Position numbers and translations under genes: made by a program
Assembly (NCBI GenBank): GCA_964016885.1
Contig: OZ024742.1
Location: forward strand, 161,820,001 to 161,884,000
Source: Eledone cirrhosa
Lineage: Eukaryota
Length of the DNA: 64,000 nt
Reading direction: 5' to 3'
Notes under the pieces: model-generated
The model's database searches: none
Seen by the model: the letters and a program-made list of their open reading frames with translations, nothing else
Told to the model about the DNA's origin: nothing
In this document: piece after piece, positions 14,514-63,819 of the stretch
Position numbering within the stretch: position 1 is the first letter of the stretch
Layout of the letters: each line of letters starts with the position of its first letter

Positions 14514-16955
14514 TATAAAAGACGTAAGATAAGAAAATATTTTTTAAAGAATTTTTAAGTAAACAAATTTTTTAAAAATTCTTTAAAAAATATTTTCTTA
14601 TCTTACGTCTTTTATATTATTGTTCTGCACCCTCCTGCATTGAACCACCTAGGTACTATGACATAACCTGTGTATTTGCTGGCATGGACGTGCATCTGTG
14701 CGCCTATGTTAGTTGATATATTAAATTATCTATATTTATCTCCAAATCACTGATTTGTCGAGCAAACCTGCCAAAACCACTTCCAAATTTTGTTGGGGTG
14801 TTAGTAGGCGTCAGTCATCTTACCATCCCATTCCTTCTAACTAGCCTCTGTGTCACGTGATTGATTCTTTAGAATCGGCCATTTGACTAGAAGCAGTGAG
14901 AATTTCAGTACATGGAATCCAGTCCTCGCCAGCTGTTCTTTCTACCGAATTATTATTATTTTTATATGAGCCGCCAGTGTCCGCGCATTGCCTGGAGACT
15001 CAGCTGAGAATAGACTCCCTGATGACGCAATGAATTCTCGACAGTTGGATTACGTAACTGTCTTTATCCCATTGCAGAAACTAATTAGTTGGAGTGAAAA
15101 TTTAAGTAAGTAAGTAAACAAATTTTTTAAAAATTCTTTAAAAAATATTTTCTTATCTTACGTCTTTTATATTATTGTTCTGCACCCTCCTGCATTGAAC
15201 CACCTAGGTACTATGACATAACCTGTGTATTTGCTGGCATGGACGTGCATCTGTGCGCCTATGTTAGTTGATATATTAAATTATCTATATTTATCTCCAA
15301 ATCACTGATTTGTCGAGCAAACCTGCCAAAACCACTTCCAAATTTTGTTGGGGTGTTAGTAGGCGTCAGTCATCTTACCATCCCATTCCTTCTAACTAGC
15401 CTCTGTGTCACGTGATTGATTCTTTAGAATCGGCCATTTGACTAGAAGCAGTGAGAATTTCAGTACATGGAATCCAGTCCTCGCCAGCTGTTCTTTCTAC
15501 CGAATTATTATTATTTTTATATGAGCCGCCAGTGTCCGCGCATTGCCTGAAGACTCAGCTGAGAATAGACTCCCTGATGACGCAATGAATTCTCGACAGT
15601 TGGATTACGTAACTGTCTTTATCCCATTGCAGAAACTAATTAGTTGGAGTGAAAATTTAAGTAAGTAAGTAAACAAAATTTTTTAAAAATTCTTTAAAAA
15701 TATTTTCTTATCTTACGTCTTTTATATTATTGTTCTGCACCCTCCTGCATTGAACCACCTAGGTACTATGACATAACCTGTGTATTTGCTGGCATGGACG
15801 TGCATCTGTGCGCCTATGTTAGTTGATATATTAAATTATCTATATTTATCTCCAAATCACTGATTTGTCGAGCAAACCTGCCAAAACCACTTCCAAATTT
15901 TGTTGGGGTGTTAGTAGGCGTCAGTCATCTTACCATCCCATTCCTTCTAACTAGCCTCTGTGTCACGTGATTGATTCTTTAGAATCGGCCATTTGACTAG
16001 AAGCAGTGAGAATTTCAGTACATGGAATCCAGTCCTCACCAGCTGTTCTTTCTACCGAATTATTATTATTTTTATATGAGCCGCCAGTGTCCGCGCATTG
16101 CCTGGAGACTCAGCTGAGAATAGACTCCCTGATGACGCAATGAATTCTCGACAGTTGGATTACGTAACTGTCTTTATCCCATTGCAGAAACTAATTAGTT
16201 GGAGTGAAAATTTAAGTAAGTAAGTAAACAAATTTTTTAAAAATTCTTTAAAAAATATTTTCTTATCTTACGTCTTTTATATTATTGTTCTGCACCCTCC
16301 TGCATTGAACCACCTAGGTACTATGACATAACCTGTGTATTTGCTGGCATGGACGTGCATCTGTGCGCCTATGTTAGTTGATATATTAAATTATCTATAT
16401 TTATCTCCAAATCACTGATTTGTCGAGCAAACCTGCCAAAACCACTTCCAAATTTTGTTGGGGTGTTAGTAGGCGTCAGTCATCTTACCATCCCATTCCT
16501 TCTAACTAGCCTCTGTGTCACGTGATTGATTCTTTAGAATCGGCCATTTGACTAGAAGCAGTGAGAATTTCAGTACATGGAATCCAGTCCTCGCCAGCTG
16601 TTCTTTCTACCGAATTATTATTATTTTTATATGAGCCGCCAGTGTCCGCGCATTGCCTGGAGACTCAGCTGAGAATAGACTCCCTGATGACGCAATGAAT
16701 TCTCGACAGTTGGATTACGTAACTGTCTTTATCCCATTGCAGAAACTAATTAGTTGGAGTGAAAATTTAAGTAAGTAAGTAAACAAATTTTTTAAAAATT
16801 CTTTAAAAAATATTTTCTTATCTTACGTCTTTTATATTATTGTTCTGCACCCTCCTGCATTGAACCACCTAGGTACTATGACATAACCTGTGTATTTGCT
16901 GGCATGGACGTGCATCTGTGCGCCTATGTTAGTTGATATATTAAATTATCTATAT
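14514..16955 (+). repeat. 555-bp tandem array (~4.3 near-identical copies), one hammerhead per monomer; retrozyme-like non-autonomous element with a short inverted 5' arm (14514-14557)
   Basis: CTGATGA at 15019, 15574, 16129, 16684 (period 555); no long ORF in the monomer; flanked by (TA)n. Confidence 0.88.
15014..15095 (+). ncRNA. Type I hammerhead ribozyme, monomer 1 (copies at 15569-15650, 16124-16205, 16679-16760)
   Basis: ACTCC-CTGATGA-C GCAATG..GACAGTT..AACTGTC..CATTGC A-GAAA-CTAATTAG-TT-GGAGT; stem III ACTAATTAGT is self-palindromic. Confidence 0.82.
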
Positions 16956-16976
16956 ATATATATATATATATATATA

Positions 16977-60803: not shown

Positions 60804-61078
60804 AATATATAAACAACTATCTGGTTGTGGAACCAACCAACCAACCAGAAATTTATAAATTTATAAATTTATTATAAATTTATTATAATAAATTGAAGTG
60901 AAAGCAACTGGTGCGTGTGTTTCTTATTAGCAACATGACCCTCCCAAAGTATAACAATATCGGTTTCAACACACGATTTCAGATAAAGAATCTTGCTAAA
61001 CAAATTCAGAAACGAAATGTATATATATATATATATATATATATATATATATATATATATATATATATATATATATAT

Positions 61079-63819
61079 GTTTTAGGTTATCAATAATGTA
61101 GTGATAATATATCGTTACGTTAGAGATGAACAGCGTACGTGCAGGTTTGCTCAACGAGTATAAATTATATTCCGGAGAAATGTAGAAAGGATGAATATAA
61201 AATGTTAGAGCAGACAAAACATCAAACGTATATACCATGGATGTGGACACTTACAATAACTTCATCCGTAAGGAATTGCATAAAAAATACAGGAAAACTA
61301 ATGAAGCCACACTTAAAAACATCAACAACTCGGCATGTGATATTGTTAAAAAACTTTGTATTGACGATAGAACGCAACCCTTAACACCAGCTATACCATC
61401 CTTCAACCTGAAGGACCACAAGGTAAACTTCGATACTAACCCTAATATTAGACTTATATGCCCCTCTAAATCTGATATAGGTAAAATTAGCAAATATATA
61501 CTAGACAGAATTATCCCCCAAGTTAAGGTTAAAGTAGAGATTAAACTATGGGGTAACACTCATGAAGCAATAAGATGGTTTAATAACATTACTGATAAGA
61601 AAAAATCAAAATTTATTCAGTTTGATATTGATGAATATTATTCCTCAATTTCACCTGATACTCTACATGAAGCTCTTTCGTTCGCTAAGGATAATTCCGA
61701 CCTTACGGATGCTGAAATTAAAATTATTATGGAAGCGAGAAAAACTATAGTTAAATTCGATGATAGCTACTGGGTTCGCAAAGATAGACCTTCTAATTTT
61801 GATATCACTATGGGTTCTAATGATTCGGCGGAAGTAACAGATCTTGTGGGAATTTATATCACCCACAGATTACAAGGAAAATTCAAGGATCTCCACGGTG
61901 GAATTTACCGTGACGATGCGCTCCTATTAGTTAAGCATATGAATAACCAGAATTTAGAAAGGATGCGTAAAAATATCAGAAAACTTTTTAAGGAACTAGG
62001 ATTAAATATTACATTTGAATATAACCTCAAAGAGGTCAATTTCCTTGATGTTACTTTCAATCTCAATACAGATACGATTAAACCGTTCCATAAACTAAAT
62101 GAGAACCTTAAATATGTAGATACGAGTTCTAACCACCCACTCTCTATAATTAAATCCATCCCTAGAAACGTTTCTCTTAGAATCTCCCGCCTATCGTCCA
62201 ACCAACAAACCTTCAAAGAACATGCCGAGTATTATGATGATGCACTTAGGAAAGCCGGTCACCTAGATAATATAGAGTATATAGTCAAAGATCACCAAAA
62301 CACCCAAAATAAATCACATAGGAGTAGAAATAGCACAGAATCACCACCATACATACACTACCGCAATAGACACAATAATAGTCGCACACCACCAAACAGA
62401 AGGCGATGTAGGGAGTATATCTGGTACAACCCGGTCTATAACAAATCTATTAAAACCAATCTACCCTCAAAATTCATTCGATTAGTTAGAAAACACTTTC
62501 CAACATCACATAAATATAATAAAATCTTAAACCCTAACACTATTCGACTTTCATATTCAACCGCCCCTAATATTGAACAACATATAAAAAAGCTTAACGC
62601 AAAACGGTTGTATAAACGCCTTCCAACACATAACAATACACGTAAAACATTAGCTATAACATCACAAAACAACAAACAACATCCTGTCCTACATAAGCAA
62701 CCTCATCAACCCATCCATGGCAATACAACAACGCAAAATTATAATTGCAACTGTGTCCAACCAGGAATGTGTCCGTTGAACAATCAGTGTCTTGAACGCA
62801 ACATCGTATACAAATGTACTATCGAATCGGATAGACAGAAGTGGTACTATGTGGGATCTACAGCCACCTCCTTCAAATCACGCCTTTATAGACATCGTTA
62901 TTCGATAAAACATGAAAACCAGCGTTATGTAACAACACTCGCAGACAAGGCTTGGCAGCTGAGTGAAAATAACCAACAATTTCACCTAAAATGGGATATA
63001 ATAGCGGCTGCTCCCCCCCATATTCCAATGGACAGGAATTTTGTAAATTATGTAATGTAGAATTATTTTGTATTATGAAATCCAAAAACATTTTATTAAA
63101 TAACAGAATAGAGCGATCGTTATACTGTAACCATCGCTTAAAATCTACATTTTCATATTATAAATACTACCAGGATTGAACGCCTGTCTCTATCCCCGTT
63201 TGATTGTCAAAATAGATATGAACATTCTTTATTAGTCTTAATTCTATCAACTCTTCTATTATTTACCTTTTAATACAAACTGCTATAGATAAAATGAGAT
63301 TTCTGATTTCTTGATTCAATTCCCTAATGCATATACCAGCTGGCTACTAGCATTGATGTTATTTAGTAGCAATCGAAATCTCCCCCTTCCCCAATTGACA
63401 CTTTATAATTAATACTACTGCACCAAATGACCAGCCCTGTCCACTGTCCAGTTGGTCAAGTAGAGATTAAAATTGGCACTCCAAAATTCTTATTTAGATT
63501 TACTCATGGTATTCTCATTAAAAACCCATTATATACTTGTTTAGTAGTAAATTATTTTACCATCTGTCATATTCTATCCCCTCTGTTCCTTCCTCTTTTA
63601 CTAATATAAATACTTCAATTTTTCTGATTTTATCCAGTTTATCCAAAATCTCTGAAGAAGTGACAACTGATTATACATTTGCTATCGAATACTTGCTAAC
63701 ATTATATGATTACGCAAGCAGCGATACATAGGTATTCGGTCTGTTACAGAAACATATGTCAATACCTAATAAATTCCTTTTTTAACAAAAGCACTTTCAT
63801 TTTATATTCATCCTTTCTA
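61079..63819 (+). mobile_element. PLE family G (Naiad-type), 5'-truncated, RT + GIY-YIG (61205-63179, frameshift near 63020); inverted tail 61079-61204
   Basis: ADKT, LKDHK, RLICP, FDI, MGS, YRDD, SNHP, WYNP, CNC..CPL, YVG, CKLC, CNH. Confidence 0.93.
63645..63765 (+). ncRNA. Type I hammerhead with ~90-nt stem II (PLE-G); stem I imperfect
   Basis: CTGAAGA 63652; GTGACA/TGTTAC, CGAATAC/GTATTCG and TTGC/GCAA helices; GAAA 63749; palindromic CATATG; GUC triplet. Confidence 0.68.

Follow-up and report, generated by a model that had tools for sequence, protein, structure and literature searches.

Why should an inserted element consist of two inverted arms whose 3' ends lie at different positions of the same element? 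This question was raised by a 64,000-nt stretch of the Eledone cirrhosa genome (contig OZ024742.1, positions 161,820,001 to 161,884,000, forward strand; hereafter the window). The original prediction had pointed to eight insertions with this architecture, and all eight proved to consist of head-to-head arms, of which one has a short (S) and the other a long (L) 3' end. The arms are located in the window as follows.

B short arm: 55590..57219, minus strand; S end at 55590; 5'-truncated; 18 mismatches in 1047 columns against the B long arm
B long arm: 57217..61018, plus strand; pieces of an RT + GIY-YIG ORF of a Penelope-like element (PLE); S site at 60958; 60-nt tail; L end at 61018
Hammerhead-like motif of the B long arm: predicted cut after 60799
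Mini-B long arm: 30985..31095, minus strand; L end at 30985
Mini-B short arm: 31096..31145, plus strand; S end at 31145
C short arm: 53383..54623, minus strand; S end at 53383; EN-region ORF; relative of B
C long arm: 54624..54690, plus strand; L end at 54690; almost tail only; 9-10 nt overlap
G long arm: 61079..61204, minus strand; L end at 61079; 22 nt of body and about 103 nt of tail
G short arm: 61203..63819, plus strand; Hydra-type PLE ORF at 61201-63060; S end at 63819
E long arm: 49205..49401, minus strand; L end at 49205; 102-nt tail
E short arm: 49402..52183, plus strand; S end at 52182-52183; canonical hammerhead motif, predicted cut after 52131
F long arm: 40180..40680, minus strand; L end at 40180; 145-nt tail; hammerhead motif, predicted cut near 40379
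F short arm: 40683..40815, plus strand; S end at 40815; no (TA)n tract beyond
D long arm: 21554..28848, minus strand; L end at 21554; 67-nt tail; Hydra-type ORF at 27770-28848; microsatellite-rich 3' region
D short arm: 28849..39862, plus strand; S end at 39862; hammerhead-like motif, predicted cut after 39840
555-bp array, short arm: 14514..14556, minus strand; S end at 14514; ORF-less hammerhead repeat
555-bp array, long arm: 14556..16951, plus strand; about 4.3 tandem 555-bp units; L end at 16951-16955, about 119 nt past the last S site

Layout and identity of the elements

The outer ends lie in (TA)n as predicted, apart from the short end of F, which adjoins another element: a 9-nt TA-like remnant is followed by a 5'-truncated PLE from 40818. 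The D element is a single insertion with its junction (28848/28849) inside the PLE ORF. Later insertions are nested in its microsatellite-rich 3' region, with APE-RT LINE fragments interrupting the long arm, and mini-B, a full APE-RT LINE and a 465-bp array interrupting the short arm. The junction of mini-B (31095/31096) is a near-perfect palindrome. The inverted arms of C and G are indeed almost tail only, overlapping their partners by 9-10 and 22 nt, respectively, and other G copies carry the same tail after their S site.

The distance from S to L was 60 nt in B, 44-46 or 55-58 nt in C, 67 nt in D, 102 nt in E, 102-107 nt in G, 117-119 nt in the array and 145 nt in F. The continuation past the short end, given earlier as about 60-340 nt, thus measures 44-145 nt, and the value of 340 nt was not reproduced. 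On the template, a short match to (TA)n is present at L as well as at S, and the next tandem unit begins with the tail sequence. The B ORF starts about 20 nt before S and continues through the tail, and tails read through into the next ORF at loci L091, L118, L122, L133, L258, L268 and L152. Partial tandems (pLTR), 5' truncation, the inverted copy and the tail are all present in these PLEs. The tails of E, F and the array contain local hairpins.

Taken together, the set comprises Penelope-like elements of the Hydra and Neptune/Nematis types and a single retrozyme-like array. Judged from their sequence, the PLEs are of the EN+ kind, with a single predicted ORF that joins RT to a C-terminal GIY-YIG endonuclease. 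Pfam matches were weak in B (RVT_1, E 9.5e-5; GIY-YIG, E 2.7e-4) and in E (GIY-YIG, E 0.003), all below the curated cut-offs; G, D, C and A gave no Pfam match and align with B and E across the EN region. The marks given for the Hydra clade include DKT and RWK motifs and a CxCX5C linker, with no CCHH (PMC8557442). The G element carries DKT, CxCX5C and, in read-through, RWK; CxCX5C is present in D and E, the latter with RWR, and F has RWK, seen in read-through only. By these motifs G, D, E and F are assigned to the Hydra type, truncated families not showing every motif, and B and C, with a CX2-5CxxC linker and a CCHH motif in EN, to the Neptune/Nematis type. No RNA data were listed for one G stretch.

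With relaxed settings, a motif scan detected hammerhead-like motifs upstream of the S site in B, D, E, F and in the array, and none in C or G. Stems I-III are present in E and F, while B, D and the array need a bulge or mismatch at stem II. The single Rfam hammerhead match, in E, was sub-threshold, the window scan being swamped by microsatellite matches. End positions had been expected to be fixed relative to the hammerhead cut; S lies 22, 51, 54, 77 or 159 nt from the predicted cuts, and a fixed distance was rejected. The 555-bp repeat has no ORF of at least 150 aa, carries a hammerhead motif with a long stem II insert and occurs in tandem at many loci. It is apparently a retrozyme-like, ORF-less tandem hammerhead unit moved by PLE machinery.

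Ends and pairing across the genome

Bimodal fixed ends paired in opposite orientation, as anticipated from the window, were seen in all seven families sampled genome-wide. Family B gave 12,330 exact matches to S followed by TA, with 11,168 read-throughs past S, and 13,172 matches to the L 24-mer, with 478 read-throughs past L and about 12,700 outer L ends; by these counts S and L stand at about 1:1. Ends numbered 21 S, 21 L and 1 other in F, 19 S and 21 L in E, and 16 S and 16 L in D, a few of the L being internal read-throughs.

On contig C1, the first 94 exact S matches and the first 100 exact L matches were compared for neighbours within 8 kb; L-S pairs lay head to head in 39 cases versus tail to tail in 2. 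The head-to-head neighbours in this sample comprised 39 L-S, 6 L-L and 2 S-S (p 6e-6 against 50%); on inspection, both S-S cases were separate insertions and 3 of the 6 L-L cases were real. Among 70 S-anchored B insertions an inverted L arm was present in 51, an S-S arrangement in 1 and a single arm in 12. Direct junctions outside family B (n = 37) were L-S in 35, L-L in 1 and S-S in 1. About nine in ten two-armed insertions are L-S. The S-S loci are L325, L166 and L282, and single-armed S copies and single-armed L copies both occur. The L-S rule is strong, yet not absolute, since L-L, S-S and single-armed insertions exist.

A longer TA match is located about 150 nt upstream, and only 53 copies end there. 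TA microhomology as the sole determinant of the ends was rejected, because this better-matching site nearby is almost never used. A common RNA fold that brings S and L together was unsupported in all seven families, the graph distance never falling below the 26th percentile of shuffles.

Extent, junctions and source of the two arms

In 51 B pairs, the long arm started inside the tail in 8, within 25 nt of S in 11, and extended more than 25 nt past S in 40. No sharp stop of long arms at S was seen in these pairs, and the tail-only arm is one extreme of a continuum. The long arm reached further 5' than the short arm in 14 of the 51, and the short arm held sequence absent from the long arm in 27, as it does in C and G of the window. 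The 5' ends of the two arms were no more than 12 nt apart in 10 pairs, where 2.0 were expected, several of them away from the 5'-end hot spots, which lie near -250 to -265 relative to S in B and at -153 to -166 in F; the starts were more than 100 nt apart in 30 pairs (median 194), and up to about 2.6 kb apart in G of the window. Direct junctions showed an overlap of at least 2 nt in 16 of 22, versus 16% for random joins, a count that omits the 47 of 69 junctions with a gap against the reference. Three junctions are natural palindromes of 18-26 nt. An untemplated G, the mark of a cap, was not evident on reading the 69 junctions, which was not a formal count.

Comparisons at diagnostic sites between arms agreed in 256 of 261 cases, where 114 discordant ones were expected. 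The two arms had a common subfamily haplotype, within one site, in 18 of 19 insertions (permutation mean 5.4, maximum 13). Arm divergence was alike in the two main subfamilies (1.1% and 1.4%). Divergence between the arms is 1-2% in B and D; in mini-B, F and the array, the short arm matches its partner without a difference. The same-source test has no power in the young families G, D and F, where two arms of one insertion resemble each other no more than arms of different insertions do. The arms of one insertion share a source subfamily, which falls short of proving that they share an RNA molecule. In two sets of RAD-seq reads and two contig sets, the tail at the G junction is contiguous with the element body. 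No listed piece bridges the G inversion; the samples may lack the insertion and read ends often fall at apparent restriction sites, which makes this result neutral on the inversion.

Possible routes to a two-ended insertion

The inverted layout itself is not new. An insertion unit made of an inverted 5'-truncated copy and an optional tail has been described as typical of EN+ PLEs (Craig et al. 2021, PMC8557442; Arkhipova et al. 2013, PMC3846280). Our insertions share with that unit the head-to-head copy, the often one-ended tail over the ORF start, (TA)n targeting, in some families a hammerhead-like motif in the pLTR, and partial tandems, whereas tails are 44-145 nt here and 30-40 nt there. 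In the accessible parts of these two papers the tail is optional, a count of L-S pairing or a test of arm origin does not appear, and self-priming or EN resolution, not twin priming, is proposed; how the inverted copies and the one-sided tail arise is stated there to be unresolved. PAc, a Poseidon element of Anolis carolinensis, cuts and extends both target strands in vitro; its tail is bounded by two internal sites, downstream of the hammerhead, at which RT starts, and uncut RNA is the template (Frangieh et al. 2024, PMC11167929). The two ends studied here likewise bound the tail, downstream of the hammerhead-like motif where one was scored, but they belong to other clades and both have a short (TA)n match. 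As far as the available text of that paper goes, the two starts are not linked to the two arms of one insertion, and no difference between strands was seen.

In twin priming of L1, attributed to Ostertag and Kazazian (2001), two target 3' ends prime on one RNA and the cDNAs are joined by microhomology, leaving an inverted 5' segment (as summarised in PMC10760644, PMC2246262). C and G in the window have this geometry; the same source subfamily and the excess of junction overlaps may reflect a single RNA template. Only a minority of L1 insertions arise in this way, with the second, internal site varying and the segments largely free of overlap. Here, in contrast, it would be the majority outcome (51/70), both sites are fixed and internal, and the arms often overlap by hundreds of bases. 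The ORF-less tandem 555-bp hammerhead repeat, apparently moved by PLEs, resembles animal non-LTR retrozymes (bioRxiv 10.64898/2026.07.22.740005); here it obeys the S/L rule, and its tandem units may lie in one arm, the other or both. A term search of the accessible text of that preprint returned neither 'tail' nor 'priming'. Neither the rule of one S plus one L nor same-source arms were found in the literature searched.

The fixed pairing of S with L suggests that the two cut strands start copying the element RNA at different points. We consider it probable that both 3'-OH ends of a break in (TA)n prime reverse transcription at two sites chosen by the protein, S and L, on RNA from the same source element, and that the two cDNAs are then joined head to head. 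Both starts would belong to one event, on opposite strands, with one RNA molecule often the template for both; where the arms overlap, the trailing RT would displace the first cDNA. Equal ends would be excluded because two enzymes could not occupy one site on one RNA. The evidence comes entirely from finished insertions. Double priming as first proposed fits the end and pairing data best, although it is inferred and its prior art is larger than was then stated. Against it, most long arms run far past S, and the classical version with one RNA needs strand displacement; the long arm reaches further 5' in 14 of 51 pairs; and 3 real L-L, S-S and 12 of 70 single-armed insertions exist. Against it, too, the in vitro work saw neither a strand-dependent choice of start site nor homology of the start sites to the target (PMC11167929).

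An antisense RNA that primes itself, or a free cDNA hairpin, could also form a head-to-head duplex, whose ends an endonuclease would trim at different sites and join to (TA)n. This combines published self-priming (PMC3846280) with EN-mediated resolution that yields the tail (PMC8557442). Identical arms, short junction overlaps and an excess of near-equal 5' ends are what it predicts, all were seen, and three junctions are palindromes; nevertheless we judge it unlikely. It would need very long loops for the 30 pairs with distant starts and for G, its symmetry gives no reason for one S plus one L, single-armed copies of both kinds exist, and sense RNA with target-primed starts already gives both ends in vitro (PMC11167929). 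Quite unlikely, too, is that the two strands prime on different RNA copies of one source locus, brought together by an asymmetric dimer whose subunits each prefer a start of their own. A dimer is predicted in PMC11167929. Such a route would need no strand displacement to give long arms that overlap, would let either arm be the longer one, and would account for the occasional L-L or S-S and for 555-bp insertions with several units in both arms. On its own, however, it leaves unaccounted for the 10 pairs with near-equal 5' ends, and does not explain why the two RNAs almost never come from different subfamilies of similar age.

Single priming at L, with the cDNA folding back and copying itself until it stops at S, could serve where the short arm is nested in the long arm (14/51) and in some near-equal cases. 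As a general route it was rejected by the 27 B pairs, together with C and G, whose short arm has sequence absent from the long arm; a cDNA primed at S could not yield the tail either, and we regard fold-back as very improbable. That the palindromes are artefacts of fold-back or chimeric reads or of misassembly, or unrelated insertions lying back to back, is the least credible reading. The identical short arms of mini-B, F and the array would fit an artefact, as would the lack of a junction-spanning raw read among the RAD-seq and contig sets at G. But the B and D arms have diverged, and single arms of D have since received further insertions. Only one arm carries the tail, thousands of copies stop at the fixed ends, no TA spacer separates the joined arms, and the two arms share a haplotype.

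Twin priming may, more tentatively and with somewhat less than an even chance, be the normal route of PLE insertion and no mishap as it is in L1: a protein dimer on one RNA would start the S and L cDNAs from the two strands of a symmetric (TA)n break, with the trailing RT displacing the leading cDNA. Across at least two distant clades, as well as in their non-coding hitchhikers, this single rule would yield the inverted pLTR and the one-sided tail, and also solo hairpin stubs where both cDNAs run off the RNA 5' end.

The counts give a testable rule: each insertion combines one S with one L end, its arms have the same source, and TA match alone does not set the sites. An in vitro system suited to testing this rule exists (PMC11167929). 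The rule accounts for tens of thousands of palindromes in this genome that might otherwise be misfiled as MITEs or assembly errors. With one arm nearly always at a fixed S and the other at a fixed L, both cut strands likely copy RNA from two points. If this is true, telomerase-related enzymes would normally write both strands of a break from RNA, which would bear on second-strand synthesis in retrotransposons and on tools for RNA-templated gene insertion.

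Eight head-to-head insertions in the window

The DNA studied (G000:C3:161820001-161884000, out of a 3.0-Gb animal genome) is a nest of retroelements within (TA)n tracts, with APE-RT LINEs, several Penelope-like elements (PLEs) and an ORF-less 555-bp repeat. All eight arm pairs of the original prediction (insertions B, mini-B, C, D, E, F, G and the 555-bp array) were found in the window sequence. Each consists of two 5'-truncated arms of the same element fused 5' to 5', and just one arm carries the tail, the stretch between the short (S) and the long (L) 3' end of the element. 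The tails measured 44-145 nt instead of the predicted maximum of 340 nt, and the S end of F adjoins another PLE rather than (TA)n. A TA-matching end was confirmed for S, but it does not distinguish S, since L too has a short TA match. Of the hammerhead expected upstream, a hammerhead-like motif was scored in five of seven families and none in the other two.

The ends of D lie 18 kb apart; its arms meet at 28848/28849, and each of them contains later, nested insertions. Because two other copies of D (L215 and L227) extend upstream into the PLE ORF at window positions 27512-29769, D is a single insertion; in comparisons between its arms, 11 of 920 and 9 of 556 columns were mismatched. The window also holds the following features.

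5830-9100 and 40818-42899: copies of a further PLE, A, with a common end point and no inverted partner within the window
9718-10530: another head-to-head pair derived from B, split by a LINE, with its outer ends at neither S nor L
22186-23563, 26920-27500, 29800-30860 and 38855-39305: long TA/CA microsatellite-rich 3' region of D, part of the element
24720-26913: APE-RT LINE fragment bearing an L1-like twin-priming scar, a 5' inversion whose overlap at 25001 measures 53 nt
35172-38853: 465-bp tandem array of 7.9 near-identical units within the short arm of D
43230-46660: further Hydra-type PLE, containing an inverted duplication of 537 bp (43583-44119 versus 46124-46660, 99.8%), running into an N gap

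The A copies are single-armed cases outside the original tally. The outer ends of the 9718-10530 pair were possibly trimmed by later events, and the inverted duplication at 43230-46660 could be an assembly feature. The microsatellite-rich region of D serves as a target for further insertions. Other window copies of the LINE from 24720-26913 showed no such 5' inversion.

Fixed ends and their pairing across the genome

Genome-wide, exact patterns for B found S followed by TA 12,330 times and S read through 11,168 times; the L-end 24-mer occurred 13,172 times, and L was read through 478 times. Therefore, outer S and outer L ends are about equal in frequency. Among the first 30 L matches, 29 passed into TA-rich flank and one was a read-through. 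The best 29-30 matches to S-ending queries gave 21 S, 21 L and 1 other end for F, 19 S and 21 L for E, and 16 S and 16 L for D, a few of the L being internal read-throughs. The same behaviour was observed for G, C and the 555-bp repeat, with two L positions in C. The ends are not chosen by TA match alone, because B has a longer (TA)n match some 150 nt upstream of S, where only 53 copies end. In B, one 7-nt word spans the S and L sites alike (window 60952-60962 and 61012-61018; read-through in copy L091). On another contig (G000:C1:132947045-132947574), a minisatellite that arose at the L site contains 12 copies of the 24-mer reading through the long end of B, one every 46 bp.

Pairing was examined by coordinates only, using the first 94 S and first 100 L matches of B on contig C1 at distances up to 8 kb. 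Head-to-head neighbours comprised 39 L-S, 6 L-L and 2 S-S pairs, with 2 tail-to-tail L-S pairs; the L-S excess over the half expected under independent choice gave p = 6e-6. Upon sequence inspection, both S-S exceptions proved to be separate insertions, and the six L-L exceptions comprised one case of separate insertions, two of tandem read-through and three real ones. The first 70 S-anchored B insertions, classified by hand, had an inverted L arm in 51 cases and, in another, an L arm split off by a later LINE; the remainder were 1 S-S, 3 with an inverted piece lacking a recognisable end, 2 unresolved and 12 single-armed. Direct junctions of five other coding families (n = 37) were L-S in 35 cases, L-L in one (an internal read-through) and S-S in one, and a further S-S case was found in C (L282). 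The predicted bimodal ends, paired in opposite orientation, are thus seen genome-wide, L-S being dominant and L-L, S-S and single-armed forms also present.

Source of the arms and the proposed priming mechanism

B comprises subfamilies, with 31 diagnostic columns. At these columns, arms of the same insertion agreed in 256 of 261 comparisons, whereas independent draws would give 114 disagreements. Because the columns are linked, the insertion is the fair counting unit; among B insertions with at least four shared sites, 18 of 19 arm pairs matched within one site, versus a mean of 5.4 and a maximum of 13 in 20,000 permutations. The two main subfamilies overlap in age, since their arm divergence is similar (1.1% and 1.4%). 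In 29 of 36 B cases, arms resembled each other more closely within one insertion than across insertions. The tendency is the same in E and C; the copies of G, D and F vary too little for this comparison to discriminate.

In tandem copies (L091, L118, L122, L133, L258, L268, L152) the tail is continuous with the 5' end of the following ORF, and the B reading frame starts about 20 nt upstream of S and continues across the tail. Therefore, S and L are internal points on tandem or circular RNA. Tandem units are possible in both arms of the 555-bp family (L185/L188/L200, L190/L199, L196/L197, L183/L195), as would be expected if the template were circular or multimeric. In a few cases (B arms L294, L296 and L324, window 60799 region; F arm L232, F -54) the end of the arm coincides with the predicted hammerhead cut or lies no more than about 10 nt from it, which suggests that cleaved RNA is occasionally used.

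Relative to S, 18 of 42 F arm 5' ends (L231-L260) fall within -153 to -166, immediately upstream of the hammerhead core and coinciding with an initiator-like sequence; B arm 5' ends cluster near -250 to -265 (L031-L060, L291-L330). These clusters could reflect transcription starts, local palindromes, or stalling of the reverse transcriptase when it meets the ribozyme.

Twin priming is the simplest account of the insertions, and a likely one. A double cut in self-complementary (TA)n would leave two equivalent 3'-OH ends, which likely prime on RNA from the same source, the one at S and the other at L, where a few bases of TA match may assist; the two cDNAs would then likely be joined through microhomology. 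This double priming, as originally predicted, fits the S/L pairing and the same-source arms, and equal ends would be scarce if both starts lay on one RNA. Its weak point is that the long arms mostly extend well beyond S, so that strand displacement or a second RNA is needed. Among 69 resolved junctions, 16 of the 22 direct joins overlapped by at least 2 nt, versus 16% for random joins, an excess that is suggestive only; the other 47, with gaps relative to the reference (additional bases, or differences among subfamilies), were excluded from this count. Additional inverted or displaced same-element pieces in some junctions (L094, L104, L312, L313, L318, L329) point to template jumps during joining. 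RNA folding revealed no shared structure bringing S and L together.

Simple fold-back of an L-primed cDNA was ruled out for C and G of the window and for the 27 of 51 B pairs in which the short arm extends further 5' (the long arm does so in 14), and an S-primed cDNA would have no tail to copy. The 5' ends of B arms lie at most 12 nt apart in 10 of 51 pairs, where the marginals predict 2.0; this hints at a single RNA molecule, or at snap-back, in a subset. Self-priming followed by asymmetric trimming is improbable, since it requires long loops, 30 of 51 pairs starting more than 100 nt apart, and leaves the asymmetry of the ends without a reason. On internal sequence grounds the insertions are very unlikely to be artefacts, although no read was found across a junction.

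Relation to known Penelope-like elements

An inverted 5'-truncated copy with a 30-40-bp tail, often single-ended, is the known layout in the available text of PMC8557442, PMC3846280 and PMC8969392, where endonuclease resolution or antisense self-priming is proposed and the cycle is termed undefined. The accessible part of PMC11167929 describes two internal starts bounding the tail, with both strands extended; it does not tie the inverted arm to these starts. As there, the template here appears mostly uncut or religated, because arms traverse the predicted hammerhead cut. Twin priming itself is an L1 model, with validation pending according to the portions available of PMC10760644, PMC2246262 and bioRxiv 10.1101/2024.12.14.628481. 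The 555-bp repeat fits non-LTR retrozymes as outlined in bioRxiv 10.64898/2026.07.22.740005.

The motifs given in PMC8557442 place G, D, E and F with the Hydra type, and B and C with the Neptune/Nematis type. The S/L rule spans distant clades, because BLASTP found no significant similarity between the reverse transcriptase regions of the two types here. Our literature search, with older subscription papers and supplements beyond its reach, found no statement of an S-plus-L pairing rule.

The insertions are real and systematic; their architecture is a known one, and the elements are new members of clades already described. What is added is quantitative: one S and one L end, arms of the same source, a choice of sites that goes beyond the TA match, and the ruling out of simple fold-back. 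With this rule, the open mechanistic question becomes directly testable.
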